From assembly GCA_963804995.1 (NCBI GenBank), contig CAWDSK010000006.1, forward strand, positions 992,001-1,056,000: a stretch of DNA of 64,000 nucleotides. The letters are read 5' to 3'. A model generated the notes under the pieces. The model was not told where the DNA came from and searched no databases. It was given only the letters and a program-made list of their open reading frames with translations. This DNA is from an uncultured Acidobacteriota bacterium. Its GTDB lineage: Bacteria > Acidobacteriota > Terriglobia > UBA7540. Below are positions 9,408 to 40,239 of the stretch, piece after piece. Position 1 is the stretch's first letter. Every line of letters begins with the position of its first letter. The position numbers and the translations under genes were made by a program.

Positions 9408-12400
9408 TCATTGGACGGTCACGCTCACGGTTGCCGAATGCGAGAAATTTCCAACCGACCCAACTACCATGACGTTATAAGTACCTGCAGGCGTGCCCGT
9501 CGGATTCACATAAGCCGTACCTCCACCTCCACAAGCCGCGAGGCCCGTCAAGAGGAGCAAGGTGAGAGCCAAAGCCACCGTGGCCCAGCGCAAGCGGTTC
9601 TTCCGCACCATGCTCCATAACCCCATTAAAGCCGCCAACATCAACCAGACCTCCAGGCGCAGGGCCAACCCCGGCCCCTGCGGCCAGGGATGGCCACCGG
9701 GCGGGACAGCGGTGCGTCGCGTGGTGCGGATCACCATAGTGGAAGTCGCCGGACTGACACCATTCAGCGTCGGTGCGGAGGGCGAGGCCGCGCAAGTCGC
9801 TGCCCCGGGTAGACCACTGCAACTGAGCGTCACCTGGGCGTTGTACCCGAACAGGGGGGTCAACGTCACGGTGAGGTTGGTGGAATTCCCGGCCACCACC
9901 GTGACCGTTGTGGGAGTCACCGCCAAGCTGAAATCAGAACCGGAACCGCCCAGAGAGACCACTTGCGGGCTGTTAGGGGCATTGTCCGTGATGGTTAAGG
10001 TCCCCGTCCGCGTACCGACCGCCGTGGGGGTGAACAAGACGCTAATCGTGCAGGTGTTTCCGGCTGCAAGGCTCTGCGGACAGGTGTTGGTCTGGGAAAA
10101 GTCGCCCGTGACGGCAATGTTGGAGATGGTCAAGGGAGACGCCCCGGTGCTCGTCAGGGTAACCGTTTGAGCAGCGCTCGTGGTGCCCGAGGATTGGGAA
10201 CCAAATGTCAAACTGGAAGTCGAAACGGAAGCTCCAGGCTGGATGACTCCTGTGCCGGTTAGCAGCACGATCTGAGGGCTATTGGAAGCGTTGTCGGTAA
10301 GGGTGAGCGACCCCACACTCGTGCCCGGCGCACTGGGCGTGAAAATGACGGTGATCGTGCAATTCGACGGCGGTGAAGTAGGTTGGAGAGGCGCCCCACA
10401 GGCGTTGGTCTTAACCGCAAAATCACCGCTCGCAATCACGCTGGTTATGTTCAGCGCCGCCGTACCGGTGTTGGTCACCGTAAGGTACTGGGGCGCGCTG
10501 GCCACATTGACGGCTTGATTACCAAAAGGCAGGCTGGTGGCTGACAGGACGACCGTGGGCAATGTCCCGCCCGTGCCTGACAAATCCACTACCTGCGTGC
10601 TGTTGGGAGCGGGCAGGTTATCCGTAATCGTGATATGGGCCGTGCGGGTTCCCACCGCTTGAGGAGTGAAGGTCACAGTAATAGTACACTGACCCAAAGC
10701 GGGCACGGAACCGTCGCACGTATTATTCTGTGAAAAATCACTGGTGTCGGCGCCCGTGAGCACAATACTGGAGATCGTCAGTGCCGTGTTTCCGCCGTTG
10801 GTGAGGGTTACGGTCTGGGAGGGCACACTCGTCGTATTGACCGCCTGGATGGGGAAGGTCAGACCCGCCGGACTGAGCTCAACTCCGCCCGAAGGGACGA
10901 TTTTCGATATAAAGGCATCGCAGTTACCTCCCGGGGTAGCCTGCAAGGGGTTCGCAAGGGGGAAGTCCAGGGAACACGTTTCCCCCGTAACGTACGCTCC
11001 GCCATTAACATCGATCGCAATGCCCGCGCCGGTATCCGTGTTGCTGCCGCCGAGGAAAGTGGAGTAAACCAACGAAGCGCCTGTCGGGTTCAGTTCGGTG
11101 ACAAACGCATCGGCGTTCCCGCCGCCAAAGTTGGGCTGAAAGACCGCACCATGGATTGGGAAATTGGTGGAAACCGTCGAGCCGGTCACATAAGCGTTTC
11201 CACTGCTGTTGACAGCAATGCCCGCCGCCGAGTCAGCAAGGGAGCCACCCAGATAGGTGAAATAGACGAGCGAGGCCGCACCACTCAAGGTGGGATTGAA
11301 CTTGGCCACCATGGCGTCGCCCTCGCAAACGCCCAAGGTGTCAAGCGCACAGTCGGCCTGAAACGCTCCTGCCGGCGCCGTAAACCCCAGGCTGCTGGCG
11401 ATGGAGGTCGTGCCCCCCGCGACATAGGCGTTGCCACTTGCGTCCACCGCGACACTGTTGCCTTGATCCAGCCCGCTGCCACCCAGGTAGGTTGAGTAAA
11501 GCAGGGAAGACTGCCCCGTGCCGTTCGTGTTGACTTTGCTCAGGAAGGCGTCACCTGCTCCGGCATACACGTTCTGCAAGGGTGCATGCGGTGAGGTGTA
11601 AGTTATCGTATCGGTGAGGGGAAAGTTGGATGAATAGGTAAGGCCGGTAGCATAGGCATTCGCGTGGGTATCAACCGCAATGCCATACCCGACGTCTTCG
11701 TTGCTACCGCCGAGATAGCTGGAATAGAGGATTCCGGAACCTGTGGCCGAAATTTTGGTGAGGAAAGCGTTCGTGCTTCCCCCCCGAACGTCGCTTGAAA
11801 ACCCCCGACAATAGGAAAGGGGGGTGGAGGTAGAAGAGGCGCTACAATTGTAACCGTGGGAGTAATGTTTGCAGTGGTCGCGCCCGTTACATAGGCGTTC
11901 AAATCGCCATCTACGGCGATTCCCCGGCCCTCAACGTCCTCGTAATACCCGAGATAACTGGAATAGACCAAGGCCGACCCGGCGATGTTCAGCTTGGTGA
12001 CGAAAGCGTTGGAGACAATCAAGCCCTGGGGATTCCACGTGGCGCCACATTTGCCGTCCCCACCGCACAGGGGGTCAAACGAACCTGCGGTTACGGGAAA
12101 ATTAGTTGAGAGGGTCGTACCAGTCACAAAAGCTTCGCCCGCGGCATCCACCGCAATCGCGTTCGCCACATCCTGACTCGTGCCGCCCAGATAGGTCGAA
12201 TACAACAACGTGGAACCGTCCGCGCTCAGCTTGGCAACAAACGCATCCTGAGGAAAATCGTAGGGTCCACCGACGTTGGGCTGCAAGGCGTGGGCCGTGG
12301 GGAAATCCGCTGAGAAGGTCCCCCCCGCAATGAACGCGGTACCATCCGGAGCTACTGCGATACCATTGGCATAATCGATGTTGCTTCCCCCGAGGTACGT

Positions 12401-13229
12401 TGAATACGCCAAGACAGGATCGATCACCAGAGGCTGGCGCGTGTCATACGGCGCCAGACGAAACGAGACCTGGTTCCGACCTTGCAAAACATAACGAACC
12501 GGAACGGGACGCTCAACTCCGCCTGCCTTTTGATAGGCCACCGGCTGGCGGAATTGCAGTTCTCCGCCTGCGACCTTCACCAGCAGGTCACCCTGAGCAT
12601 CCGTGCGCACGCCCTGGATGCCCTCCAGTACAAACCGGATCTTGCGCGCATCGGCATGGGGAGCAAGCTCAAAGTCATATTCAAGCTGGCCCTGGTTCCC
12701 GTGGTAAACAAGATCAATCCCCGGATAGACGCCCGATGCGGCAACCCGTCCATAATTGGGAACCCCGGTGCGCCACTGGGAGGGGATCCTTTCCGATGAA
12801 GTAATTGCTCTTGCCAGGCTGCTCGTCCAGCGCCTTCAGGTTTGGAACTGAAGCGCCCTTCGCAAGGCGCATCGTCACCACGGCCGAGGATACCTTTCCG
12901 GCGTTGCTTTGCTTCCCGTCCCCTTGCCGCAAGACCAGCACAGCTTTCGTCGAGGTCAGGAAAAGAGTGTAGGCGCTTCCACGGGAAACAAACTTTACTT
13001 CCTGCCCTTCCGGACCTTTGACTTGGCCAACGTTCTTCTCAAAACTCAGTGGCCTCTTCGCGGATGCTGCCCGGACCCGCGCTTCGGCGGGCACGTCGGA
13101 ACGAGGAAGGGCCGAAGCAGTGTCACCCTTGGCGTAGACAGCCGTGTTTCCAGCAGCCAGCCAAAGCAGAGTAAGACCCGCTAGTAGCGAGGCAACCCGT
13201 AACCTACCGGTTTTCTCAAATCTGTGCAT
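9408..13229 (-). CDS. Large surface protein with SBBP beta-propeller repeats and choice-of-anchor-D/ASH-type Ig-like repeats; two homopolymer frameshifts (~12783, ~11782)
   Basis: Signal peptide; PLSFEKNVGQ and SNYFIG; repeated YSTYLGG...GIAVD...AYVTG.T.S.FP; Ig repeats QTVTLTN.G...C.ITV.FTP; C-terminal TM plus CGGGG...GTPAGTY. ORFs 12714-13229, 11603-12610 and 9408-11579 join after one-base corrections in a C4 and a G7 run. Confidence 0.85.
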
Positions 13230-13736
13230 AGGATCTACCCATACCAGCTTTAGTGTCTGAATTTGACCCCTGCCCTCTCCAGCTTATGATGCGCTGGAAC
13301 CCAGGCCAGAATTGGCAATCCTGCGGCATCTTATTAGCAGGACTCCCGGCACTACAAATCTTTAACTTGTAAAACCAACTGCTCGGGTAACTCGAAGAAC
13401 CTGGCCAACTGCGTACTTGTCAATGCTTATTGTATGTACGATTCCTGCCAAATTGAACCGCGCAACTTCCTGGTTCCAGTTCGCAGGTTCAAACAATATG
13501 TGTGTGCACAGAATACACGAACTAAAACCCGTGCGCAATCACCTTCTTCTTTCACCTTCTTCTTTCGGAACCATCATTCGGAAAGGGTCATGCAGTTTGT
13601 CATTGGTACCGATCGTTTCGAACTGCCGGGCGGTCGCGCCTTAAGTGTCGATACAAGGAAAGAGCATCATTGGCTTTCTGGTGAGGGAGGTCGGTTGGCG
13701 CAGAGCGAAGCTCTGCGTCTGGAGTTTCTACATTTA

Positions 13737-15116
13737 TTATGCATCAGCGGCGTGGGTGAGGGCGCGGTCGGTGAGTTGGAAGCCCAGAGATTGGGGACAT
13801 TCCGGGTGGTCGACCATTTCTTGGTGCAGCAGGGTGACGAGGTCGAGGCAGGAAGGGCGGTGGGCCTTGCGTCGCCACCGGGGCAGAGCCTGATAGGCCG
13901 TGCCACGCTCGGTGCCGAAGGCTTGGAGAGAAGCCAGGAGCAGCGCGCTGTAGGCGGCCACGACCAGGGCAGGTTGCTTGGGCACGGCGTTAACGTTCCA
14001 TAACTGGGCTTGTCCGACACCCAGCGTCTCCTTCTCGTCGCGGTGGTTGACTTCGATCTGCCAGCGGTCGAAGTAGATTTGCAGCAACTGAGGGGCAGAG
14101 TGCCGCAGGTCGGTGGTCAGCAGGTAGGCCGGTTGACGGTAGTAGAGTCTGGAGCTCTTCCGTTTGCGATAGGGGGTAGGAGCCACGACGAAGAGCCGCA
14201 GGGGGATCTGGCCGGCGCCCCGACGCCAGTAGACTTGCGACACCTCTTTATAACGGAGGCGGCGGCGCTTGCCTCCGTAGAAGAGCTTGGTTTGCTGCCA
14301 GAGGTGGGACTCGTCCTGCCGGACCTGTTCGGGGGTAAAGGTGGAGAGGGCGTAAAAGCGGCGAGAAGGCTGGGGAGCGCGAAAGCCGAGGCGCGCATCC
14401 TTGCGGGCGCGGGCGATCAACTCGGTGCGATCGCGGGGGGCGCGCAGACAGGTGCGGTTGCAGAAGCTGCCATCCAGAGCCAGCACCAGCAGCTTGGCCC
14501 CACCCCCGGCCGCATCCAGCGCCTGGCGCAAGGGGGCCACGCTCTGCACAAAACGCTGCGAGAGGTTGTGGAGCTTGCGCATCCTTTTATATTCCTGCCA
14601 GGCTTCCTCTTTCGCCTTGCGGGAGGGCTTTTTCAGCGGCGCCGCCTCTTCAAAGCGCACGGGCAGAGCGCGGCAGCTGGCGGGGGCGTGCCGATGCAGG
14701 GGCAGCAGCAGGGAAGCTTGCAGAAAGCGCACGCCGCGCAGGAGGTTGACATGAAAGGGGGGCGAGAGGGGATCGCGGTGATAACGCGCCTGGGGAATGG
14801 CGCGGCCGGTCTTGCGCAGGCGGGTGTCGTCGACGGCCACGCCCACCAGGCGGCCGGGACAATAGGGCAAGGCGCGGCGCCAGACGCCGGCAAACAACGT
14901 CTGCGGTTCCCAGTGACAACGCGAGTGGAGAAAGTATTCGCTCGACCAACTGCGCTGCTGGCGGCCCTGGGTCCAGAGGATACGCGAAAGACAGCGTCGA
15001 CCCACGCAGACCAAGGCGCCCAGGGCCTGGCGCACGGCGCGCTGCAGGGTGCGCTGCTGGGGAAAAGTGGGGGCCCAGTCCGCCACGATCTCCGACCAGG
15101 CGGCGAACAGAGTCAT
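13737..15116 (-). CDS. DDE transposase (IS4 superfamily, IS701/DDE_5-like)
   Basis: VAVDDTRLRKTG, LALDGSF and YFDRWQIEVNHRDEK (Y-2-R-3-E-6-K motif). Confidence 0.9.
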   Translation of the reverse strand: MTLFAAWSEIVADWAPTFPQQRTLQRAVRQALGALVCVGRRCLSRILWTQGRQQRSWSSEYFLHSRCHWEPQTLFAGVWRRALPYCPGRLVGVAVDDTRLRKTGRAIPQARYHRDPLSPPFHVNLLRGVRFLQASLLLPLHRHAPASCRALPVRFEEAAPLKKPSRKAKEEAWQEYKRMRKLHNLSQRFVQSVAPLRQALDAAGGGAKLLVLALDGSFCNRTCLRAPRDRTELIARARKDARLGFRAPQPSRRFYALSTFTPEQVRQDESHLWQQTKLFYGGKRRRLRYKEVSQVYWRRGAGQIPLRLFVVAPTPYRKRKSSRLYYRQPAYLLTTDLRHSAPQLLQIYFDRWQIEVNHRDEKETLGVGQAQLWNVNAVPKQPALVVAAYSALLLASLQAFGTERGTAYQALPRWRRKAHRPSCLDLVTLLHQEMVDHPECPQSLGFQLTDRALTHAADA

Positions 15117-15448
15117 CGGGCCTCCGGACGTAAGCCGAAAGTGTTCTTCCCGGTACGCAGGAAGCGATCGCCGCGGGCGACTTTTTTGGTCAGCGAAGAG
15201 ACCAGGCTCTCGCGATCGACGGTGACGTGGAAGGCGGCGCGGAGGTGCGCCAGGAGTTCGGAAATGTGCAAGGGGGTACGGGCCTTCTTGAGTATGTCGT
15301 ACGCCATGTCCACTTGGGACAGACCTGTGCGGCGCGGCCTCGGGGCGGGGGCTGGGGAACCGCCGCGGAGACGGCGAACCGCCCGCAACTGGGCATCCAG
15401 TGAGGCCTCGAATATCGAAAGAATGGAATCCTTGAGATCGTCAGGCAA
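15113..15448 (-). CDS. Small winged-helix protein (HARE-HTH-like) inside the IS
   Basis: GGAGG RBS before TTG; AYDILKKARTPLHISEL...SLVSSLTK...RFLRTGKNTFGL; stop overlaps the transposase start (ATGA). Confidence 0.7.
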   Translation of the reverse strand: MPDDLKDSILSIFEASLDAQLRAVRRLRGGSPAPAPRPRRTGLSQVDMAYDILKKARTPLHISELLAHLRAAFHVTVDRESLVSSLTKKVARGDRFLRTGKNTFGLRPEAR

Positions 15449-15655
15449 GTTAACCTCCGGAGCCAGGACTCAGGAGGAAGGTAACGGAAATCAGGTCGGT
15501 CTGTCAATAGAAATCTTACTTTGCCAGACCTAAATGTAGAAACTCCAGGCGCAGAGCGAAGCTCTGCGTTGTTGTGCGCAAGGTGGGGAGGCTCAGAGAC
15601 GTGAGTCGCAGAGCTGTGCTCTGCGCCACCCGGCCAGCCGCATCCAATTTCATGA

Positions 15656-15980
15656 GCCCCAAAGGGGCGAAATAACAAAGCCCAGGCCAACGGCCGGGTT
15701 TAGATTATCCGCCGATTTTCCCCCAGCCCTGAAAGGGCGAGATACGCGTTTCCCCATGCCGCAATCGCTTTCCCCACTCTACGTAACACAACAAGAAACC
15801 CACCACCGCGTGGTCAGCGGAATTCCGGAAGCTGCTGGACGCGCACGGAATCGCCTACGACGAACGGTACGTGGGGGATTGAAAAGGATTGTTCCACCCC
15901 TTCAGGGCTCGGGTATCGGTTTGGGTCCCGCTGACCCAGGCCGTTGGCCGGGCTTCGTTAGTTCGCCCCTTTGGGGCTCA
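15656..15980 (+). mobile_element. Internally deleted derivative of the IS200-like Y1 transposase element
   Basis: Flanking palindromes AGCCCCAAAGGGGCG...CGCCCCTTTGGGGCT. The sequence joins the first codons (MPQSLS) to the last part (GIAYDERYV) of the tnpA at 35090. Confidence 0.85.
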
Positions 15981-16327
15981 AAAACCTGGGCTTCGTTAGA
16001 TCGGTTCCCTCCCCTCGGAGAGGGCGGTTACTCAAGGTAAGGTGCGGCGCCGTAGCCACCCTGAGATCATAGCCTTCTCCCCAGGGGAGTCCGATTGCTG
16101 GACCCCGATGGGGTCCATCGGAACCCAGACATCGGGGAAGGTGGCCGGCTGGCGCAGGGCGAGCGCAGCCCTGCGATTGTAGTGCGGTCTGATGACGTGA
16201 ATCGCAGAGCTGCGCTCTGATGTTATGAAAGCGGCGATGCCTCCTCGGGTGCCGCTAAACTGGAGGTGGTCCAGTTTAGCGGGCCCTCGGGTTCAGACCG
16301 AGAGTTTTGCATCGAGGAGACAAAGCG

Positions 16328-17429
16328 ATGAAGAAGAGTATAACGCCCATTGGAACGCCGGTGGGAGTGGATGTTCACAAGCGTCGTTGCAAGGTGGTGG
16401 AGCTTGATCACGGAGAGATTAAGGCACGGAAGTCGATGGCCAACACGCGGGAGGAGTGGCTGGAGATGTTGACGGAACTTCCTCCCGACGCCGAGATCGG
16501 CCTGGAGGTGAGCACGGCAGGCTACTTTGCCATGAGCGTGCTGGAAGAGGCGGGGTGGCGAGAGCGCGCGCACTGGGTGCACACGGCGGGGATCGACAGC
16601 AACCGCCGGCAGAAGAATGATCGTTTAGATGCCGAGCGGCTGGCGCGCAAGCTGGCCGCGCACCATCTGGATCCGCTGCCGGAGGCGTGGTTTCCGCCGC
16701 CGGAGATTCGCGCCCTGCGTCTGCGCGCACGCCAGCGCTGCTGGTTGGCCCTGCTGCGCACGCAAAGCCAAGAATCACCTGCAAAGCTTGCTGGGGATGC
16801 ATGGCTTGCAGGCGCCGGGGACCGACCCGTTCGGAGCGGCCGGGGAGAAGTGGCTGGCGGAACAGACCTTGCCGATGCCCTTGGCCGAAAGTATCCCTCA
16901 GATCCAACGCCTGCTGCAGTTCCTGGAGGAGGAGATCGAAATCAGCGAGAAGTACTTGCAGGCGGTGGACGGACAATTCCCCGAGTTGGCGCTGCTGCGC
17001 ACAATCCCCGGCATCGGCCCCATCCTGTCCCCGGTGATTTGGAGTGAGATCGGCACGATCGAGCGGTTTCGTTCCGCCAAGGCCTTGGCCAACGATACGG
17101 GGCTGGTCTCCAGCTTTTACGACAGCGGGGAAGTGAAGGTGTCGGGTCCCATCACCCGCCAGGGATCGCGCTGGCTGCGCTGGGCCTTCGTCACCGCCGC
17201 CAATGTCGCCATTCAATACCGCAATCCTTTCGCGCGGCGCTACCACCGCCTGCGCCGCAGCAAGAAACCCAACGTGGCCAAGGCCGCCATCGCGCACTCC
17301 TTGGCGCGTTGTGCGTATGGAGTTTTGAAGCACGGCTGCCCTTATCGGGAAGACCGTTGGGGCCGCCAAGTCGGCGTACTGGAGCAGGAAGCCCGTGCTG
17401 GCGCTAGGTACACCAAGACCGCGCTCTGA
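16328..17429 (+). CDS. IS110 recombinase/transposase; frameshift near 16765
   Basis: N-terminal VGVDVHK and KNDRLDA (DEDD domain); C-terminal LRTIPGIG...GLV....SG..ITRQGSRWLRWA; GAGGAG RBS; one extra A in CAAAGCC. Confidence 0.9.
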
Positions 17430-17530
17430 TAGGGACCTGCTCCCGAACAACCTCATGGGGACCAGGGCAACCTGGCTAGCCCGTAGAGATGAAAGGGACC
17501 GAACCGACTCGGCAAACTCGCATGGCAAGA
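17390..17530 (+). ncRNA. Putative bridge RNA/seekRNA of the IS1111-type element (boundaries approximate)
   Basis: GCTGGCGC (17397) is the reverse complement of the right target; GCGCTCTG (17421) equals the left target plus core; ACAACCTCAT (17447) matches the reverse complement of the donor junction at 8/10; AGAGATGA (17485) equals the donor junction. Confidence 0.65.
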
Positions 17531-18091
17531 GCAAGAACCCAACGCCCACGGGGCCGTGCTTCATCCCCGGCAGGCGGCGGGGAGCCAACCCTTCCCGCCC
17601 CCCGGGCTCTACATAAAGGAGGAACGACTATAACTTGGAATAATCCTATGAGATAATACGTACAGAATGGCAGCCGACGGCGAAGTCGGCAACCCGCCAC
17701 TTTGCCGAAGGGGTACGGCGCGTTTTTCAGGCATGGGGAAGCTGTGCCCAGAGCTTAGGAGGGGGGCGACCGCAGGCCGCCCCGGCATCGTTTCCATCAG
17801 CCTCCGACCGGCTATTCCTCAGCGGGTTGCTCGCCAGCAGAGCCCGCCTCCGCTTCACCGGCTGCAGGCCATTCTGAAGTCGAAGGGAGAAGTTTGTCAA
17901 AGGCGAATAAGAAATTCAAAAAATCGGCTTGACACGGCATCGCGGTTTCAGAGATGCGCCAGCCGGCCAAAAGAGAGGGCAGAGAACCACGGTCGGTAGG
18001 CTTCAAAAAAGAGTGGGTCAAGGAAGGGTCAAGGACAGGGTCAAGGAAGTCGCAAGCCATAAATGAGAGCTTGTGGTAATATGCGCCGGTC

Positions 18092-18682
18092 ATGGGACTT
18101 AAAAGCATTCCCCAGGAAGTCCGCGACAGATTTCGCATTGAGGAACGCGGACACGCTTCTGCCATCCTCGCGAGCGATTACCCGAACGAGTTTAAGGACC
18201 TCGTGGAGTGTCTCGGTGCGTTCTCTTTGAAGCGCAGCCATATCATGAACCCAGGTGGGGGAAGATCACAGATTCCAGAGATGATTGACGGATTTCTTCG
18301 CGAGCGGGGGTGGGGAGAGAAATCGTTCGATATTGCGATCACCGTGGACGGCAGACCAGTTCCGATCCCGACTCACAAGATCGACAATTTCAAAAATGAG
18401 GTGGGGGTGGAAGTGGAGTGGAACAACAAGACAGAGTTTTACGACCGCGACCTTAATAACTTCCGGCTACTGAAAGAACTTCGGGTGCTTGCGGTTGGGG
18501 TCATCATCACCCGATTGAGCGAGTTGAGGACATTGTTTACGCAGCTTGGAGAGTGGCACAAATACGGAACGACATCGACGCATTGGGACAAACTCATACC
18601 GAAGGTAGATGGAGGCGGCGCTGGGGGCTGCCCGCTTCTACTGGTGGGGATTGGAGAGGCTTGTTACGATCCCCATTCGTAG
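18092..18682 (+). CDS. BglII/BstYI-family type II restriction endonuclease
   Basis: THKIDNFKNEVGVEVEWNNK..FYDRDL.NF and GGAGGCPLLLVGI; paired with an MTase. Confidence 0.8.
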   Translation: MGLKSIPQEVRDRFRIEERGHASAILASDYPNEFKDLVECLGAFSLKRSHIMNPGGGRSQIPEMIDGFLRERGWGEKSFDIAITVDGRPVPIPTHKIDNFKNEVGVEVEWNNKTEFYDRDLNNFRLLKELRVLAVGVIITRLSELRTLFTQLGEWHKYGTTSTHWDKLIPKVDGGGAGGCPLLLVGIGEACYDPHS

Positions 18683-34677: not shown

Positions 34678-35089
34678 GCCACGCACAAAACGCTGGGGGT
34701 TTGTTGCAGGGGCGGTTCGCGGCGCGGCAAGATTTTGTGCCACGGGCATCTTGCCCGTGCTCGGGCATGGCCAGGATGGCCATGGCACAGCTTTGGTTGC
34801 GGCTCTGCCGCGCCGACAAGGGCTCTGCCCTTCCGGGCCCATCCTCACTTTTTCCCCCTCTGGGCCTCCCGGAAGGCATTGCCTTCCGGGAGGCCCTGGG
34901 GTTTCTACATTTTGTATGCGAACTCCGCCCGCGCCAACCCCCCGATTCCCGCAGGGCGACAGAAGAGCGGTTTGGCGACTAGATTCAGCCCCAAAGGGGC
35001 GAAATAACGAAGCCCAGGCCAACGGCCTGGGTTAAGATCATCCCCCAATTTTACCGCGAGCCCTGAAGGGGCGAGATAGGTGTTCCCCC

Positions 35090-35542
35090 ATGCCGCAATC
35101 GCTTTCGCAACTCTACGTTCACTTGATCTTCAGCACCAAACATCGCGAGCCGATGTTATTGTCGCCCGTGCGCGAAGACCTCCACGCCTACCTGGCGGCG
35201 GTTCTCAACAACCAGGACTCCCCGGCGCTGAAAGTCGGAGGCATGAGCGACCACGTTCATGCGCTGTTTCGATTGTCGAAGAACCTCGCGCTGGCAAAAA
35301 TCGTGGAGGAAGTGAAGACCAGTTCCTCGAAATGGGTCAAGACGCAAGGGCGCGGCTTAGCGAACTTCTATTGGCAGAGCGGCTACGGCGCGTTTTCGGT
35401 GGGCTCGGCGGATGTGGAAGAAGTCGTGGAATACATCGCGCAACAAGAAAGCCACCACCGCGTGGCCAGCTTTCAAGAGGAATTCCGGAAGCTCTTACAC
35501 GCGCACGGAATTGCCTACGACGAGCGGTACGTGTGGGATTGA
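35090..35542 (+). CDS. tnpA: IS200/IS605-family Y1 (HUH) transposase, stand-alone TnpA
   Basis: HLIFSTK.R, DHVH (HUH), WQSGYGAFSV and YIAQQ..HH. Confidence 0.92.
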   Translation: MPQSLSQLYVHLIFSTKHREPMLLSPVREDLHAYLAAVLNNQDSPALKVGGMSDHVHALFRLSKNLALAKIVEEVKTSSSKWVKTQGRGLANFYWQSGYGAFSVGSADVEEVVEYIAQQESHHRVASFQEEFRKLLHAHGIAYDERYVWD

Positions 35543-35566
35543 AGAAGACTGTTCCGCCCCTGATTT

Positions 35567-36060
35567 AGCCCCAAAGGGGCGAAATAACGAAGCCCAGGCC
35601 AACGGCCGGGTCAATGGGCGGGCCGCCCCATTTTTGTGCCTGAGCCCCAAAGGGGCGAAATAACGAAGCCCAGGCCAACGGCCTGGGTCAATGGGCGGGC
35701 CGCCCCATTTTTGTGCCTGAGCCCCAAAGGGGCGAAATAACGAAGCCCAGGCCAACGGCCTGGGTTTAGATTACCCCCCAATTTTGCCCCCAGCCCTGAA
35801 GGGGCGAGATAGGTGTTCCCCCATTCCGCAATCGCCTTCGCAACTCTACGTACATCACAGAACAAGAAAGCCACCACCGCGTGGCCAGCTTTCAAGAGGA
35901 ATTCCGGAAACTACTGGACGCGCACGCAATCGCCTACGACGACCGGTACGTGTGGGATTGAAAAGGATTGTTCCGCCCCTTCAGGGCTCGGGTATCGGTT
36001 TGGGTCCCGCTGACCCAGGCCGTTGGCCTGGGCTTCGTTATTTCGCCCCTTTGGGGCTCA
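35567..36060. repeat. Palindromic repeats of the IS200-like element (76-77-bp tandem) plus a second deleted tnpA copy
   Basis: AGCCCCAAAGGGGCGAAATAACGAAGCCCAGGCCAACGGCC at 34987, 35567, 35643 and 35720; inverted copies near 36013-36060 and 39749-39795; deleted tnpA remnant at ~35813-35961. Confidence 0.88.
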
Positions 36061-36199
36061 AGGACGGTTGCCGAAATCGGAAATATGGTGCCCGGGTTTC
36101 TTGACACCGACACCTTTCTGACACCCGAGGAGGGGGGCGACGCCACGTGAAACTCAGAATGCTGAGGGATGGCGACAAGAAATCGGAAATATCGTGCCT

Positions 36200-36289
36200 G
36201 TCCGAGTTTCTCCTGGTACGCCGAGGAAACAGGCGCACGGTGATGAAGAAATATCGGTCCGAAAGAAAAGGACGACGGAGCTTCGACAC
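36200..36289 (-). pseudogene. N-terminal remnant of a REP-associated tyrosine transposase (RAYT)-like gene
   Basis: GTG-SKLRRPFLSDRYFFITVRL resembles a RAYT N-terminus; a GTAG REP (36333-36363) lies just upstream; no HUH motif follows. Confidence 0.55.
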
Positions 36290-36404
36290 GGCGCTACAAT
36301 ACAACGGTTTGTAACATTATGGCGAGAAAAGACGCGGTCCGCAAAGGCGGCGGTCCGCGCTACGAACTAATCCTCCAAATGCCAAGCGAAGGCAGGAGAC
36401 AACA

Positions 36405-37190
36405 GTGGACAAATCGCTGACGAAGATGATTCGATTACTTTCGCCAAAATTCCCCGAATGGGACGAGACGCTGCAGCGGTTTGACCGGCAGAGCAAGGAC
36501 CTTACCGAGAGAGAAAATTACGACGCAGAGGTACGCACGATTCAGGAGGTTTGGAAGATTCTGGAAACAGTATTAAAAGTCTGCACGAAGGTAGGCGGCT
36601 ACAAAGACGATTGGGACTTCCCCGAAAAGCTCCACCTGATGATATGCGGCATTGACACGTGGGTGAAGTCCAAGAAGATGGGCGTACAGTTTGAAATCGG
36701 GCGCTATGACCGCGAGATTTTCCTTCAAACCTCGGTCCACGCGCCTCACTTTTTGAAAAAGATGGATGATGAATTCTGGGCCTGGTTCCTGGAATTGCGG
36801 ACCCTCGGCAACTTTTGCTTTGAGGAAAATGCGTGCCCGAAGTCGCAAGAGGGCCGGAACGCAATTGAAGCCATGAAAAGCTCGAAGAGCCATCTTTTCG
36901 CCCTGATTCGAAACTATGTGGTCCTGGAAATCTATGAGGATACTTCAGAGGGGCTTGGCTCGCTTCGAATAGAGTGGCCGCAGGCCACGCCGTGGGCCGA
37001 AATCTTGACGAACGCAGCGAAGGCTTTCCGCTGTTTCTATAAAATGAATTACAAGCTCCATAAGCTCGGTGGACCTGCAATAGACATGACGCAATTTACT
37101 CCCGATTTGGCGGCACTTGGTATGACCGACGAACAGGCTGCCGAGTTGTTTGAACGTCGTCCCAGTACCTTTCGGCCTCCAAAACCATGA
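36405..37190 (+). CDS. Hypothetical protein
   Basis: 261-aa ORF with AGGAG RBS; no family recognised. Confidence 0.65.
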   Translation: MDKSLTKMIRLLSPKFPEWDETLQRFDRQSKDLTERENYDAEVRTIQEVWKILETVLKVCTKVGGYKDDWDFPEKLHLMICGIDTWVKSKKMGVQFEIGRYDREIFLQTSVHAPHFLKKMDDEFWAWFLELRTLGNFCFEENACPKSQEGRNAIEAMKSSKSHLFALIRNYVVLEIYEDTSEGLGSLRIEWPQATPWAEILTNAAKAFRCFYKMNYKLHKLGGPAIDMTQFTPDLAALGMTDEQAAELFERRPSTFRPPKP

Positions 37191-37212
37191 TGGTGTGACA
37201 CCTTTTCCTCCG

Positions 37213-37470
37213 CTACCATGAGAGATCCGGATCGTGCGTGTAGCCGTCCGGTAGCTGTCTCAGCAATGACTCGACGGATGGCACCTGATTCTTGTCCGTC
37301 TCCGGGCTAGTCGTGGAGATATTGGCGTTCCTTCCCAGTTGCTGCAACTGGCATGTCCGTTCGGTGACCGCCGTGTTGTCGCAAGTGATCCCAGAGATGT
37401 TGCAGGTGCGTTTGTCACGATCATAGTAGATTACGCGGAAGTATCTGGGTTTCCTAGCTGGCATCTTCAT
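37213..37470 (-). CDS. Hypothetical protein
   Basis: 85-aa ORF with GAAGGGG RBS. Confidence 0.5.
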   Translation of the reverse strand: MKMPARKPRYFRVIYYDRDKRTCNISGITCDNTAVTERTCQLQQLGRNANISTTSPETDKNQVPSVESLLRQLPDGYTHDPDLSW

Positions 37471-37542
37471 TGTCCCCTTCCTGGCCTAACAAGAAAACGG
37501 CACCTGAAGCCCTTTTTCTGCCCGACTGTCGAGTTCCATTCG

Positions 37543-38496
37543 TCACTCCCCCGAGGACTGCGGGCTGACGGGTGTCTGCCCTTTGTTATCCGTAGTCGAT
37601 TGGACAATGCAATGCTTCTTGTGCTTGCCATCCGGCGGCCAGGGGCGATACTCCGAACGGAGAACTTCGCCACTGCCACGGACATGGAGACCAAAGAAAT
37701 ACGTGCCGTGGAGTTTCCCGAACAGCCCCGTGCCTTCTCGGTAGTCTGCAAAATGGGCGCGCACGAAGTGTGCGCAGGATTCCTTACCCTGCGCGGGGTC
37801 GAACGGCTCACCTACGGAATGCTTGGTCGATTTGTGAACCTCGATTATGTGGAAAGGTGGAGCCGAGAAGCCATGGACCCGCTTGAAACACTGAGGATGC
37901 TTACACGATCCCTCGACTTTCCTGATGGACACATTTTTGCAATGGAAAAAGGAAATAGAACATATCGCCGGTACAAATAGGGAGCCCATGGCATCGGCGA
38001 ATTCCTCCCGATCCTCTGCCCGAACACAAGCGGGTATCCTGTAGGTGCGGTTAAGAATGCGGCCTTCATGTGAAATTTCAGCTATCCAGGCCATGTTTTC
38101 GTAAGCCTGCTGGTCCAAAGGGTTCCGTGTGAACAGCGTTCCCCGCACCCAGTCCTCAACACCACCTCGATTGGCGCATTCCTTTTCTTCATCGCTGAGG
38201 TCCCACTTCTCAAACAGGACGCCAGCCAGCGTCGGTCGAGGATCAGCCGTGCGAACATCGCACTCTACAAACATCGCAGGGAACGGCAGCTTAAATTTCG
38301 GGCTGACCTCTTTGAAGTCGAATTCCTCGGCGACTTCCGCAGAGACCCAGTCAGCAATGTTCTGGGCATGAACCACGAATGCTGACCGAAGAGTCGTGAG
38401 TTTATGTTCGTGCGAGTCGAATCGGGCGGTCCTTTCGTAGGGCCACCAATGCCAGCGCCCGTCAAGAAGCTGTGTATAAAGCGTGGGATTCATCAT
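37543..38496 (-). CDS. Hypothetical protein, phage-like
   Basis: 317-aa ORF with KLPFPAMFVE and a C-terminal HFVRAHF...FFGLHVRG segment. Confidence 0.6.
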   Translation of the reverse strand: MMNPTLYTQLLDGRWHWWPYERTARFDSHEHKLTTLRSAFVVHAQNIADWVSAEVAEEFDFKEVSPKFKLPFPAMFVECDVRTADPRPTLAGVLFEKWDLSDEEKECANRGGVEDWVRGTLFTRNPLDQQAYENMAWIAEISHEGRILNRTYRIPACVRAEDREEFADAMGSLFVPAICSISFFHCKNVSIRKVEGSCKHPQCFKRVHGFSAPPFHIIEVHKSTKHSVGEPFDPAQGKESCAHFVRAHFADYREGTGLFGKLHGTYFFGLHVRGSGEVLRSEYRPWPPDGKHKKHCIVQSTTDNKGQTPVSPQSSGE

Positions 38497-39015
38497 TCAC
38501 CGTTGACAACTCATAATAGCTCTCTTCGTCCGGGACCATGCGACCCAAGTCATGCGGCTAATTCTACACGACGCCACGCGGGCTGGCGCAGATATGTTTT
38601 TGGGAAAACCGGGACTCGCACCATATTTCCCATTTACCGACATCACAGCTTCCGCCGCCGCCCAACCAGGGATTAGGGATTGGGAATTAGGGTCCTGTAA
38701 CCACCCCCCGTCGGAAAGCCGCGACCCCTCCTGAATCTCGTAAACACCCCCCGGCGCGAACGCGCCGTCCCCTTCCTTCACTGCGTTCAGGACAGGCGCT
38801 GAATCAGGAGGGGAGTCCGCCCGTCCGTCCGCCCTGGCAGCCTGTGGCGCGGAGCATCCGCCGGTTTTCCTCTGGGGGAAAGTGTCAGTGGGGAAAAGGG
38901 GTCAAGTACCTTTTTCGTTCAGGAATGATGCGCTAGAAGGGAGAAAGGGAGGGAAACATGGAAACGGTGCCACGTACCGTTCCTCTTCTGAAAGAAGGCA
39001 GGAGGATGGCGTGTG

Positions 39016-39249
39016 TTACTTCAGCGCTTCGTTAATTTCGATGTCCCGCTTGAGCACATCGGTCAACAGTTCCGACAAGCCCACACCCTTCTGCTCGGCC
39101 TTGGCGGAAAAGTACTGCCATACACTTTGCTCGATGGAGGCAGGCAGAAAGACCTTCGCGTCCGGGGGAATGTGGTGCAATCCCCGGACTCCCTTGCGGA
39201 AATCGATTTCCTCGGGCATCTGATCGTCGTTGATGGTGCTCTCACTCAT
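39016..39249 (-). CDS. BrnA/CopG-like antitoxin
   Basis: MPEEIDFRKGVRG...; overlaps the toxin stop (ATGA-type coupling). Confidence 0.7.
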   Translation of the reverse strand: MSESTINDDQMPEEIDFRKGVRGLHHIPPDAKVFLPASIEQSVWQYFSAKAEQKGVGLSELLTDVLKRDIEINEALK

Positions 39250-39551
39250 AGGTTTTCTTCGTAGAAGCGGATTTCGCTTCCTGTTGCCTGGCGAGCTGAA
39301 ATCAGCCGGATCTTCGTTATCGCCTGTTCCATTTCATGCCAGACATAAACAACGCAGAGAATCGCACCGTTAACCGCACAGCCGACGGAAAACCAACGCT
39401 CCTCAGCTTCGCTATGCTCCAAATCGGCCACGCTGAGCAGCCGCGGATCAGCAAATACGGACGAGGCAAGCTCAAAACTCACACCGTGCTTACGGATGTT
39501 GGCGGCAGCCTTGCTCTCGTCCCATTCGAACTGAAATTGCCGGTCGCTCAA
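39246..39551 (-). CDS. brnT: BrnT family toxin
   Basis: FEWDESKAAANIRKHGVSFE.A..VF.DP, HS..EERW and IRLISAR.AT..E...YE. Confidence 0.92.
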   Translation of the reverse strand: MSDRQFQFEWDESKAAANIRKHGVSFELASSVFADPRLLSVADLEHSEAEERWFSVGCAVNGAILCVVYVWHEMEQAITKIRLISARQATGSEIRFYEENL

Positions 39552-40239
39552 TGCCGGATCCCAGAGGCCTTAACGGCACCCGTAAAGGATTTTAGCACAG
39601 TCCCTCTTCCCGTGTGCCTTCGTGCCTCTGTCGCCAGATCCGTCTACTGACGGATGGGGGAGGTTGGTCTGGGGGATTGGGTAGGTCGCGCCCTTCGCTT
39701 TGCTCAGGGCAGGCCCTTCAGGGCTCGGCGTTGATGCGGGTTCCGTTGACCCAGGCCGTTGGCCGGGCTTCGTTAGGTCGCCCCTTTGGGGCTCAAAGAC
39801 CGCAGTGGCCTTGGCCAGGCTGGGCTTCGTCCGCGCCACATTTCATTTCCCATTGAAACGCGGCACGAAGGCCATTGTAGCCGGGAGCTAAACAATCCAC
39901 TTGGCCTTATAACGGCCAAACCGTGCTTTTGGGGTGGGGCGTGATGGGGGCCGAGGCGGCGTAATGCACATCCGAAATGTAGAAACTCCAGGGCCTCCCG
40001 GAAGGCATTGCCTTCCGGGGGGCCAGGAGGGGATTGGGGGTCAAGTCTCACGACGGAAAGGCACAGCCATTGTCGCCGCGGCGACCGAAGCCGCAGGTCT
40101 TCCCTCAAGGGCCAGTTCGCAATTCGGACAAGCCTGGTTCGCGACGCGCCTTCGCGATAACAACGTATGGCCACGCATCTGGCAGAATGCGGCGCGTATG
40201 CGCCACCCGCGAGCATGGTCAGAATCGCGAACCTTCCCG

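Follow-up and report, generated by a model that had tools for sequence, protein, structure and literature searches.

Why should an insertion sequence be framed on both sides by the same complete stem-loop? This question is raised by an element in a 64,000-nt stretch (hereafter the window) of contig CAWDSK010000006.1, which belongs to the genome of an uncultured Acidobacteriota bacterium (GenBank assembly GCA_963804995.1; 7.55 Mb in nine contigs, searched here). The element spans window positions 13719-15548 (1830 bp), has perfect 18-bp terminal inverted repeats, and is bordered directly outside both ends by the 21-mer GCGCAGAGCGAAGCTCTGCGT (13698-13718 and 15549-15569). An earlier note on this DNA, made from its letters alone, had described these ends and identical flanks correctly, and had proposed that the element recognizes hairpins or cruciforms, cuts at their base and duplicates the whole hairpin. 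Comparison of many insertion sites showed that the hairpin is indeed duplicated whole, with cuts at or 1 nt outside the base of the stem, whereas the physical cruciform is the part of that proposal that we infer from the same sites.

Insertion sites and target duplications

The features of the element and its flanks are listed below (ORF, open reading frame).

13698-13718: left hairpin copy, 21 bp (1 nt, 8-bp stem, GAA loop, 8-bp stem, 1 nt), identical to 15549-15569
13719-13736: terminal inverted repeat on the transposase-stop side, CTGGAGTTTCTACATTTA, forming a perfect 18-bp pair with 15531-15548
13737-15116, minus strand: transposase ORF, 459 aa, Tn5-like DDE enzyme with a complete YREK motif
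15113-15448, minus strand: small ORF, 111 aa, with a TTG start behind GGAGG; predicted long N-terminal helix, then a winged helix-turn-helix
15449-15530, minus strand: non-coding leader between inverted repeat and small ORF, containing TTGACA and presumably the promoter region
15531-15548: terminal inverted repeat upstream of the small ORF, perfect pair with 13719-13736
15549-15569: right hairpin copy, the same 21-mer as 13698-13718

The stop codon of the small ORF and the start codon of the transposase share 4 nt (ATGA on the coding strand), which places the transposase in the -1 frame and agrees with the translationally coupled two-ORF layout proposed before. In its short form, the element end reads CTGGAGTTTCTACAT. 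The flanking 21-mer had also been called a stem-loop, and its predicted DNA fold supports this (-9.5 kcal/mol, a value equalled by none of 200 shuffles). As judged from sequence, the element appears to be an active, autonomous insertion sequence of a widespread clade; its transposase groups with Tn5/IS4/IS701-like DDE enzymes, and no family name for the clade was present in the sources accessible to us, ISfinder lying outside them.

First, we found seven copies of the element in the genome, which have at most six differences per 1830 bp, including a changed last base in the copy on contig C4. The direct repeats at these copies measure 21, 19, 22, 21, 18, 23 (one mismatch) and 21 bp; all are different and each is a hairpin. 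Because the flanking repeats differ among near-identical copies, the 21-mer is not a constant part of the element ends, and short non-palindromic duplications, the other outcome that had been considered at the outset, were not seen. Second, sites without the element have one hairpin. The exact 21-mer occurs four times in the genome, namely in the two element flanks and at C6:1888650 and C6:1890527, with a one-mismatch copy at C6:1889538, and the copies outside the flanks have a common context (ggttg on the left, tgttgtgcgcaagg on the right). C6:1888650 represents a paralogous empty site, in which this context surrounds one hairpin copy. The targets of the copies on C4 and at C5:966603 and C1:327296 likewise have paralogous sites with one hairpin, and C5:965754 is a paralogous empty site with a single hairpin within the same flanks. 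The C4 target sits in a many-copy repeat, with 29 exact copies of its 19-mer. Finally, perfect hairpins (stem of at least 8 bp, loop of 1-5 nt) number 1837 in the genome and cover 0.49% of its bases; on contig C9 there are 127 of them, compared with 32-35 in three 3-mer shuffles. Chance placement is excluded since hairpins make up such a small part of the genome, yet all seven copies, as well as 8 of 10 copies of a sister element (IS-B, described below), lie exactly on hairpins. The dispersed repeat of the REP (repetitive extragenic palindromic) type to which the 21-mer had been assigned thus turned out to be a small family, with the four exact copies mentioned, amid the 1837 genomic hairpins.

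Relatives of the element were collected from one genome per species, and the best 80 of 176 were kept, with transposases 62-91% identical to that of the window. Their hosts were mostly Acidobacteriota metagenome-assembled genomes (MAGs), together with Hydrogenedentota, Armatimonadota and Lysobacterales. A search for the best inverted repeat gave wrong ends through the palindromic flanks. The ends were instead located by the initial 15 bases of the element end (at most two mismatches), which are conserved among the relatives; both ends were found in 69 of the 80 loci. After removal of one spurious pairing from 83 elements with both ends and 45-bp flanks, the copies of the window genome included, 82 elements remained. 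Direct repeats of 17-32 bp (mode 21) were present in 52 of them, and all 52 are hairpins; a class with 4-bp duplications was absent among the 82. The repeat is centered on the dyad, with left and right overhangs equal in 50 of 51 unique sites, and extends beyond the perfect stem by 1 nt in 26 sites and by 0 nt in 13-14 (0-1 nt in 39 of 51). Repeat and stem vary together at the extremes, from 17 bp with a 6-bp stem (L037) to 30 bp with 14 (L024), 32 bp with 13 (L055) and 33 bp with 15 (a second element in the window, at 34896-39991).

These sites show the target to be a short, GC-rich, near-perfect palindrome of the REP type, with stems of 6-15 bp and loops of 0-7 nt. Its sequence can be any, as the stems compared have none in common. 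They also show that the staggered target cuts are symmetric and fall at or 1 nt outside the ends of the palindrome; therefore gap repair leaves one whole hairpin on each side of the element. That the element targets hairpins and duplicates them whole is a conclusion in which we place very high confidence.

A repeated hairpin need not arise by duplication, as it could belong to the element itself, or the element could have settled between two neighboring REPs that were already there. Palindromic flanks do lengthen the apparent inverted repeat, REPs are often clustered, and at the C3 copy a second hairpin adjoins the target. However, the flanks vary while the element is near-identical, and the bases of the loop and overhang are repeated directly, not inverted, in 48 of 52 cases. 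In addition, the paralogous sites have one hairpin, and a scan of the genome found no identical hairpins 0-3 bp apart, which argues against insertion between pre-existing twin hairpins; the same scan revealed no excision footprints. Varying flanks, paralogous sites and hairpin-pair scan together refute both versions of this explanation, and we regard its remaining chance as negligible.

It could also be supposed that the transposase cuts ordinary B-form DNA with a long stagger and that palindromes are preferred because a symmetric dimer reads both halves. Long fixed duplications are known in another DDE family, IS1202 (bioRxiv 10.1101/2022.12.17.520857), a symmetric target consensus is known for IS10/Tn5 (PMC1525189), and a modal repeat of 20-22 bp accounts for 33 of the 51 sites. 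Against this, lengths between 17 and 33 bp occur, and the repeat ends track the ends of the stem, as the overhangs and their symmetry indicate; moreover, the stems are without common sequence, and B-form DNA marks no end of a palindrome unless sequence is read. In the IS1202 family, to which PMC10132070 also relates, the duplications fall into fixed classes of 27-28, 16-17 and 5-6 bp (bioRxiv 10.1101/2022.12.17.520857), and the main text of that preprint does not contain the words palindrome, hairpin or stem. The two groups are thus alike in having unusually long DDE target duplications, and differ in that the length here is variable and tied to the stem. Searches of Pfam and NCBIfam gave no IS1202-type match for the transposase, the IS1202 transposase itself not being compared directly. 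Overall, we consider a long stagger on B-form DNA to be quite improbable.

Sister element, control families and the form of the target

The same footprint was observed for the sister element IS-B, which is 1763 bp long, has 10 copies in the genome and ends in CTGGACTTTGGCC, and whose transposase is 40% identical to that of the window element. One of these copies is located as follows:

C3:102361-104123: IS-B copy (locus L088); its transposase matches Pfam DDE_Tnp_1, and a small ORF that lies upstream overlaps the reading frame of the transposase

Eight of the 10 IS-B copies have hairpin repeats (18, 21, 27, 21, 22, 22, 21 and 19 bp). The remaining two have reciprocally swapped flanks, from which one hairpin insertion and one insertion with a 7-bp non-hairpin repeat (ATAGTTC) can be deduced. 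A relative of IS-B in another MAG (65% identical, ends CTCGGCTTTGGCC) has 14 copies with hairpin repeats of 20-22 bp, while in a further group of IS-B relatives, MFD01716, the ends could not be resolved from three copies.

The terminal repeat of the window element also bounds 10 further elements in the genome that lack a related transposase and range from 163 bp to 10.6 kb. Four measure 163-175 bp, a fifth 305 bp and two others about 510 bp, and the largest three reach 5.1, 6.3 and 10.6 kb. Six of the 10 lie between hairpin repeats of 19-33 bp whose two copies differ at no more than two positions; at the other four the repeat has four mismatches or is absent. One of the 10 is the second element of the window:

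34896-39991: element of 5096 bp with the same terminal repeat; flanking repeats at 34863-34895 and 39992-40024
35090-35542: Y1_Tnp gene, IS200-like (E 2.2e-26), with its own REP-like repeats on its flanks
39246-39551, minus strand: BrnT toxin gene, inside the element

Its direct repeat is a hairpin of 33 bp with one mismatch and a 15-bp stem, the two copies folding at -21 and -18.9 kcal/mol. A tblastn search found no relative of the transposase within it, and it is presumably mobilised in trans. A RAYT-like gene inside an element that targets REP hairpins makes a curious pairing; the sister elements of 6.3 and 10.6 kb lie elsewhere in the genome. In Acidobacteria, Y1 genes with long inverted repeats on either side have been described under the name 'TIRtrons' (Di Nocera et al. 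2013, PMC3733652).

Other transposons of the same host behave in an ordinary manner. Four other multi-copy DDE families in the genome have non-hairpin repeats of about 9, 3-4, 4 and 11-12 bp, which indicates that the host does not impose hairpin duplication. This bears on the possibility that the hairpin is met on transiently single-stranded DNA, at a replication fork or in a transcription bubble, or that a REP-binding protein of the host or the Y1 (RAYT-like) enzymes of the genome mark it. Short stems fold more readily in single-stranded DNA, the genome has 14 Y1_Tnp matches, and many targets contain the GTAG/CTAC tag of REPs (PMC3733652), all of which fit such a route. However, the same footprint extends across several phyla and hairpins of many unrelated sequences, and the other insertion sequence families in this genome ignore hairpins. 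For the single-stranded version in particular, the established mechanism implies that a DDE element needs two target strands, of which a one-strand hairpin offers one. We therefore regard single-stranded or host-marked targets as unlikely.

An extruded palindrome appears to be the simplest reading of the target, because the stagger spans 17-33 bp depending on the stem, while a transpososome whose geometry is constant cuts with a constant stagger, and because B-form DNA carries no mark of where a palindrome ends. The palindrome would be bound as an extruded cruciform, either pre-existing or induced by a protein, and the transposase would join the element ends to the 5' feet of the cruciform. 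Gap filling would then copy each arm and give a duplication of 17-33 bp that follows the size of the hairpin. Taken as a whole, an autonomous shape-targeting element that inserts at an extruded palindrome is probably the best explanation of the data, and for the attack on the 5' feet of a cruciform in particular the balance is favorable, if by a smaller measure. A more specific version, in which a structure-specific DDE integrase without any sequence requirement acts on a four-way junction and attacks the two 5' feet of an extruded or protein-extruded cruciform, in the manner of a junction-resolving enzyme, has in our estimate slightly less than an even chance.

Several observations weigh against insertion at an extruded palindrome. 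First, the correlation between repeat length and perfect-hairpin length is r = 0.62, a value that includes an outlier and ignores mismatch-extended stems. Second, 30 of the 82 elements have no matching repeat; in 17 of these a perfect hairpin lies within 2 nt of each end but the two hairpins are not the same, in 12 such a hairpin is present at one end, and in one at neither. We ascribe the missing matches either to copies recombining with one another or to events within one molecule, as two cases alone show: the odd IS-B pair and the loci L017 and L018, which lie on one contig in opposite orientation and have a common flank. Third, at L033, L041, L059, L087 and the miniature element at C6:1411795-1411969 the two flanks have the same stem with the loop inverted between them, which simple gap repair does not predict. 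Such loops could arise if copies residing in members of one REP family that face opposite ways underwent exchange. At L009 and L041, 30 nt or more of the flank is inverted between the sides, for which recombination, an intramolecular event or an assembly artefact could be responsible. Fourth, a search of 20 relatives with window positions 11700-17600 as query found no true orthologous empty site; only the left-hand gene was recovered (67-71% identity), the sequence between the genes could not be aligned, and the DNA on the right is repetitive. Paralogous sites stand in for orthologous ones throughout this study. Fifth, the 7-bp repeat deduced from the swapped IS-B flanks is not a hairpin, suggesting that hairpins are preferred but not obligatory. 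Finally, a stem of 6-9 bp is rather too short to extrude readily as a cruciform by itself, and the protein would therefore be expected to induce or trap the structure.

Proteins of the element and the surrounding DNA

The transposase just reaches the Pfam cut-off for DDE_5 (27.3 bits vs 27), and its best model is NCBIfam transpos_IS701_3 (E 2.6e-38), with 132 bits under a cut-off of 170. The other IS701 models (transpos_IS701, 33 bits vs 150; transpos_IS701_2, 22 vs 250) and the IS4 models (transpos_IS4_2, 36 bits vs 152; IS4_4, 35 vs 250; IS4_1, 23.5 vs 115) likewise stay under their cut-offs, and no IS1182 model appears among the eight NCBIfam models matched at E <= 1. Across 27 aligned relatives, the residues D96/D97, D215 and E355 never vary, and neither does the complete motif Y348-(2)-R351-(3)-E355-(6)-K362. 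The AlphaFold2 model (pLDDT 75.5, pTM 0.81) has the Tn5 transposase as its best Foldseek match (4dm0/1muh, E 1e-8, TM 0.46-0.50), across the whole length of the model. With all four residues present and a Tn5-like predicted fold, the YREK-type DDE transposase of the earlier note was confirmed. A profile search of the PDB with the transposase alignment gave nothing at E <= 1, and tblastn against 72,556 plasmids gave nothing at E <= 1e-10. At least 6837 proteins match at E <= 1e-5, and in the sources they are named simply 'hypothetical', 'DDE superfamily endonuclease' or 'transposase'. Sequence and predicted fold place the enzyme between IS701 and IS4, and it reaches the curated cut-off of neither.

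The small protein had been called HARE-HTH-like. Its Pfam HARE-HTH match (PF05066) is below threshold (E 1.5e-3, 19.3 bits vs 25.9), and that label stands to the extent that the predicted winged-helix fold and the likeness to the RNA polymerase delta subunit support it. The NCBIfam delta model matches at E 1e-5, under its cut-off, and a PDB profile search points weakly to the same subunit (E 0.19). The AlphaFold2 model (pLDDT 81.7) consists of a long helix followed by a winged helix-turn-helix and has the delta subunit 8x6g_E as its best Foldseek match (E 1.9e-3, probability 1.0); among solved structures, its fold is closest to the N-terminal domain of delta, to Rok and to other winged helices. 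The protein is well conserved, with 70% mean column identity among 24 relatives, and nearly all relatives keep the 4-nt stop/start overlap with the transposase in the -1 frame. A predicted complex of the two proteins scored 0.00, which speaks neither for nor against pairing.

Several related elements have a different small ORF. In L047, L050 and L066, which have the same terminal repeat, a DUF6788 ORF (E 1e-10, two tested) replaces the winged-helix ORF; the transposase of L047 and L050 is 477 aa long, and hairpins adjoin both ends of all three elements, differing between the two ends. The small ORF of IS-B (95 aa) is unrelated to the winged-helix ORF and has a weak MazE/AbrB match (E 0.027). 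Since IS-B duplicates hairpins and the DUF6788 loci adjoin them without a winged-helix ORF, it is probably not the winged-helix protein that selects the target, contrary to one of the two roles suggested for it before, and hairpin targeting would reside in the core of the transposase. The N-terminal part of the Tn5 transposase binds the transposon ends, and it is to the full-length Tn5 enzyme that our transposase model aligns. The small protein may instead be a DNA-binding regulator or assembly factor, kept as a conserved, translationally coupled partner.

Small ORF and transposase form a single ORF in two of the 69 elements (L056 and L064; 581 or 583 aa), and a search for longer fused proteins gave 22 matches, mostly single sequences. 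A natural fused form was rejected, as these cases read as mutated copies. Because the transposase lies in the -1 frame relative to the small ORF, a fusion made now and then by frameshifting, as in IS3 or IS1, is conceivable.

The DNA to the right of the element is rich in repeats. Hairpins (e.g., at about 15605-15627) and REP-like units lie at window positions 15600-16060, where an ORF at 15756-16040 (starting MPQSLSPLYV) is a short, internally deleted remnant of the Y1 gene. Around the Y1 gene, at 34980-36060, the same REP-like units are present again, and further copies occur in the source genome and in related ones. A repeat at about 16200-17970 has three copies elsewhere in the genome (98% identical) and contains a 389-aa ORF (16419-17588, minus strand) without a Pfam match; neither hairpin repeats nor clear inverted ends were found for it, and it is possibly an undescribed mobile element. 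Farther along the window lies one more ORF of note:

18092-18682: ORF encoding a restriction endonuclease domain of the BglII type (Pfam E 1.1e-38)

The genome as a whole is rich in insertion sequences, with at least seven other multi-copy DDE families. These include an 18-copy element of 2022 bp with 4-bp duplications of the CTAG/TTAA type and an IS5-like element of 914 bp with about 15 copies.

Known systems and significance

The duplication is exactly 4 bp in IS701 and about 10 bp (range about 7-13) in IS4 (De Palmenaer et al. 2008, PMC2266710), so that the lengths quoted in the earlier note were right for both. According to the same study, YREK is incomplete in IS701, with the tyrosine present in 4 of 27 members. 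The window element resembles IS4/IS701, including Tn5/IS50, in reaching the DDE_5 cut-off, in its Tn5-like predicted fold, in the YREK motif of IS4 and in inverted repeats that start with CT. It differs from IS701 in the duplication (18-23 bp in all seven copies, 17-32 bp in 52 of 82 elements) and in the completeness of YREK, and from both groups in having two ORFs instead of one, hairpin duplications of 17-33 bp, and scores under the cut-offs of the family models.

The nearest system in logic is IS1272, which belongs to another family (IS1182) and has the opposite outcome. IS1272 targets stem-loops of varied size and sequence and deletes them without a duplication (Wan et al. 2017, PMC5678879). 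The model given for it, named 'stem-loop replacing' or structure-dependent transposition, involves a cruciform attacked at its 3' feet, and the 5'-foot geometry is drawn there as hypothetical pathway b in Fig. 13. Both elements thus take stem-loops of varied size and sequence as targets, with structure as the target; ours duplicates the stem-loop (5' feet) instead of removing it (3' feet), and the transposases are not demonstrably related. In this sense the window element is the mirror image of IS1272, and the hairpin-duplicating clade is a variant form of structure-dependent transposition. For IS1182, ISfinder is said to give repeats of 0-60 bp.

Several insertion sequences are known to target REPs, such as IS1397, ISKpn1, ISPsy8, ISRm22, ISPa11, ISPpu9/10 and IS621 (Tobes and Pareja 2006, PMC1525189). 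Like the window element they use REPs as landing sites, often on the symmetry axis. Their insertions disrupt the REP, always at the same internal position, with a duplication of 0-6 bp, and those of the IS110 type use a sequence-specific site (PMC1525189). The window element, in contrast, leaves the REP hairpin intact on both of its sides. During spacer integration by Cas1-Cas2, two transfers on opposite strands at the ends of a partly palindromic repeat result in duplication of the whole repeat. This is alike in outline, and differs in that the enzyme is unrelated, the repeat is sequence-specific and the system is not a transposon. Full-text literature searches, with ISfinder/TnPedia and the Siguier reviews outside their scope, gave no description of whole-hairpin duplication by an IS701/IS4-like element. 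An insertion sequence tied to SMAG palindromes in Stenotrophomonas maltophilia was reportedly noted by Rocco et al. in 2010.

The length of a DDE target duplication is regarded as a fixed signature of enzyme geometry, whereas within the single clade described here it ranges from 17 to 33 bp and is set by the stem of the target, a variability most simply explained by an enzyme that acts on non-B DNA. For annotation, it follows that palindromic flanks lengthen the apparent inverted repeats and mask the true ends of such elements. Being autonomous, small (1.8 kb, two genes) and represented by numerous natural copies and miniatures, the element offers a tractable system for studying a Tn5-like transpososome and cruciform recognition, and a shape-directed integrase could be of practical interest. 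It is also relevant to the question of whether REP palindromes of such short length are extruded in vivo. If the proposed mechanism is true, each insertion would be a lasting in vivo record of the extrusion of a 6-15 bp REP palindrome, and the intact hairpin left on each side would spare the REP function of the neighbors and insulate the element.

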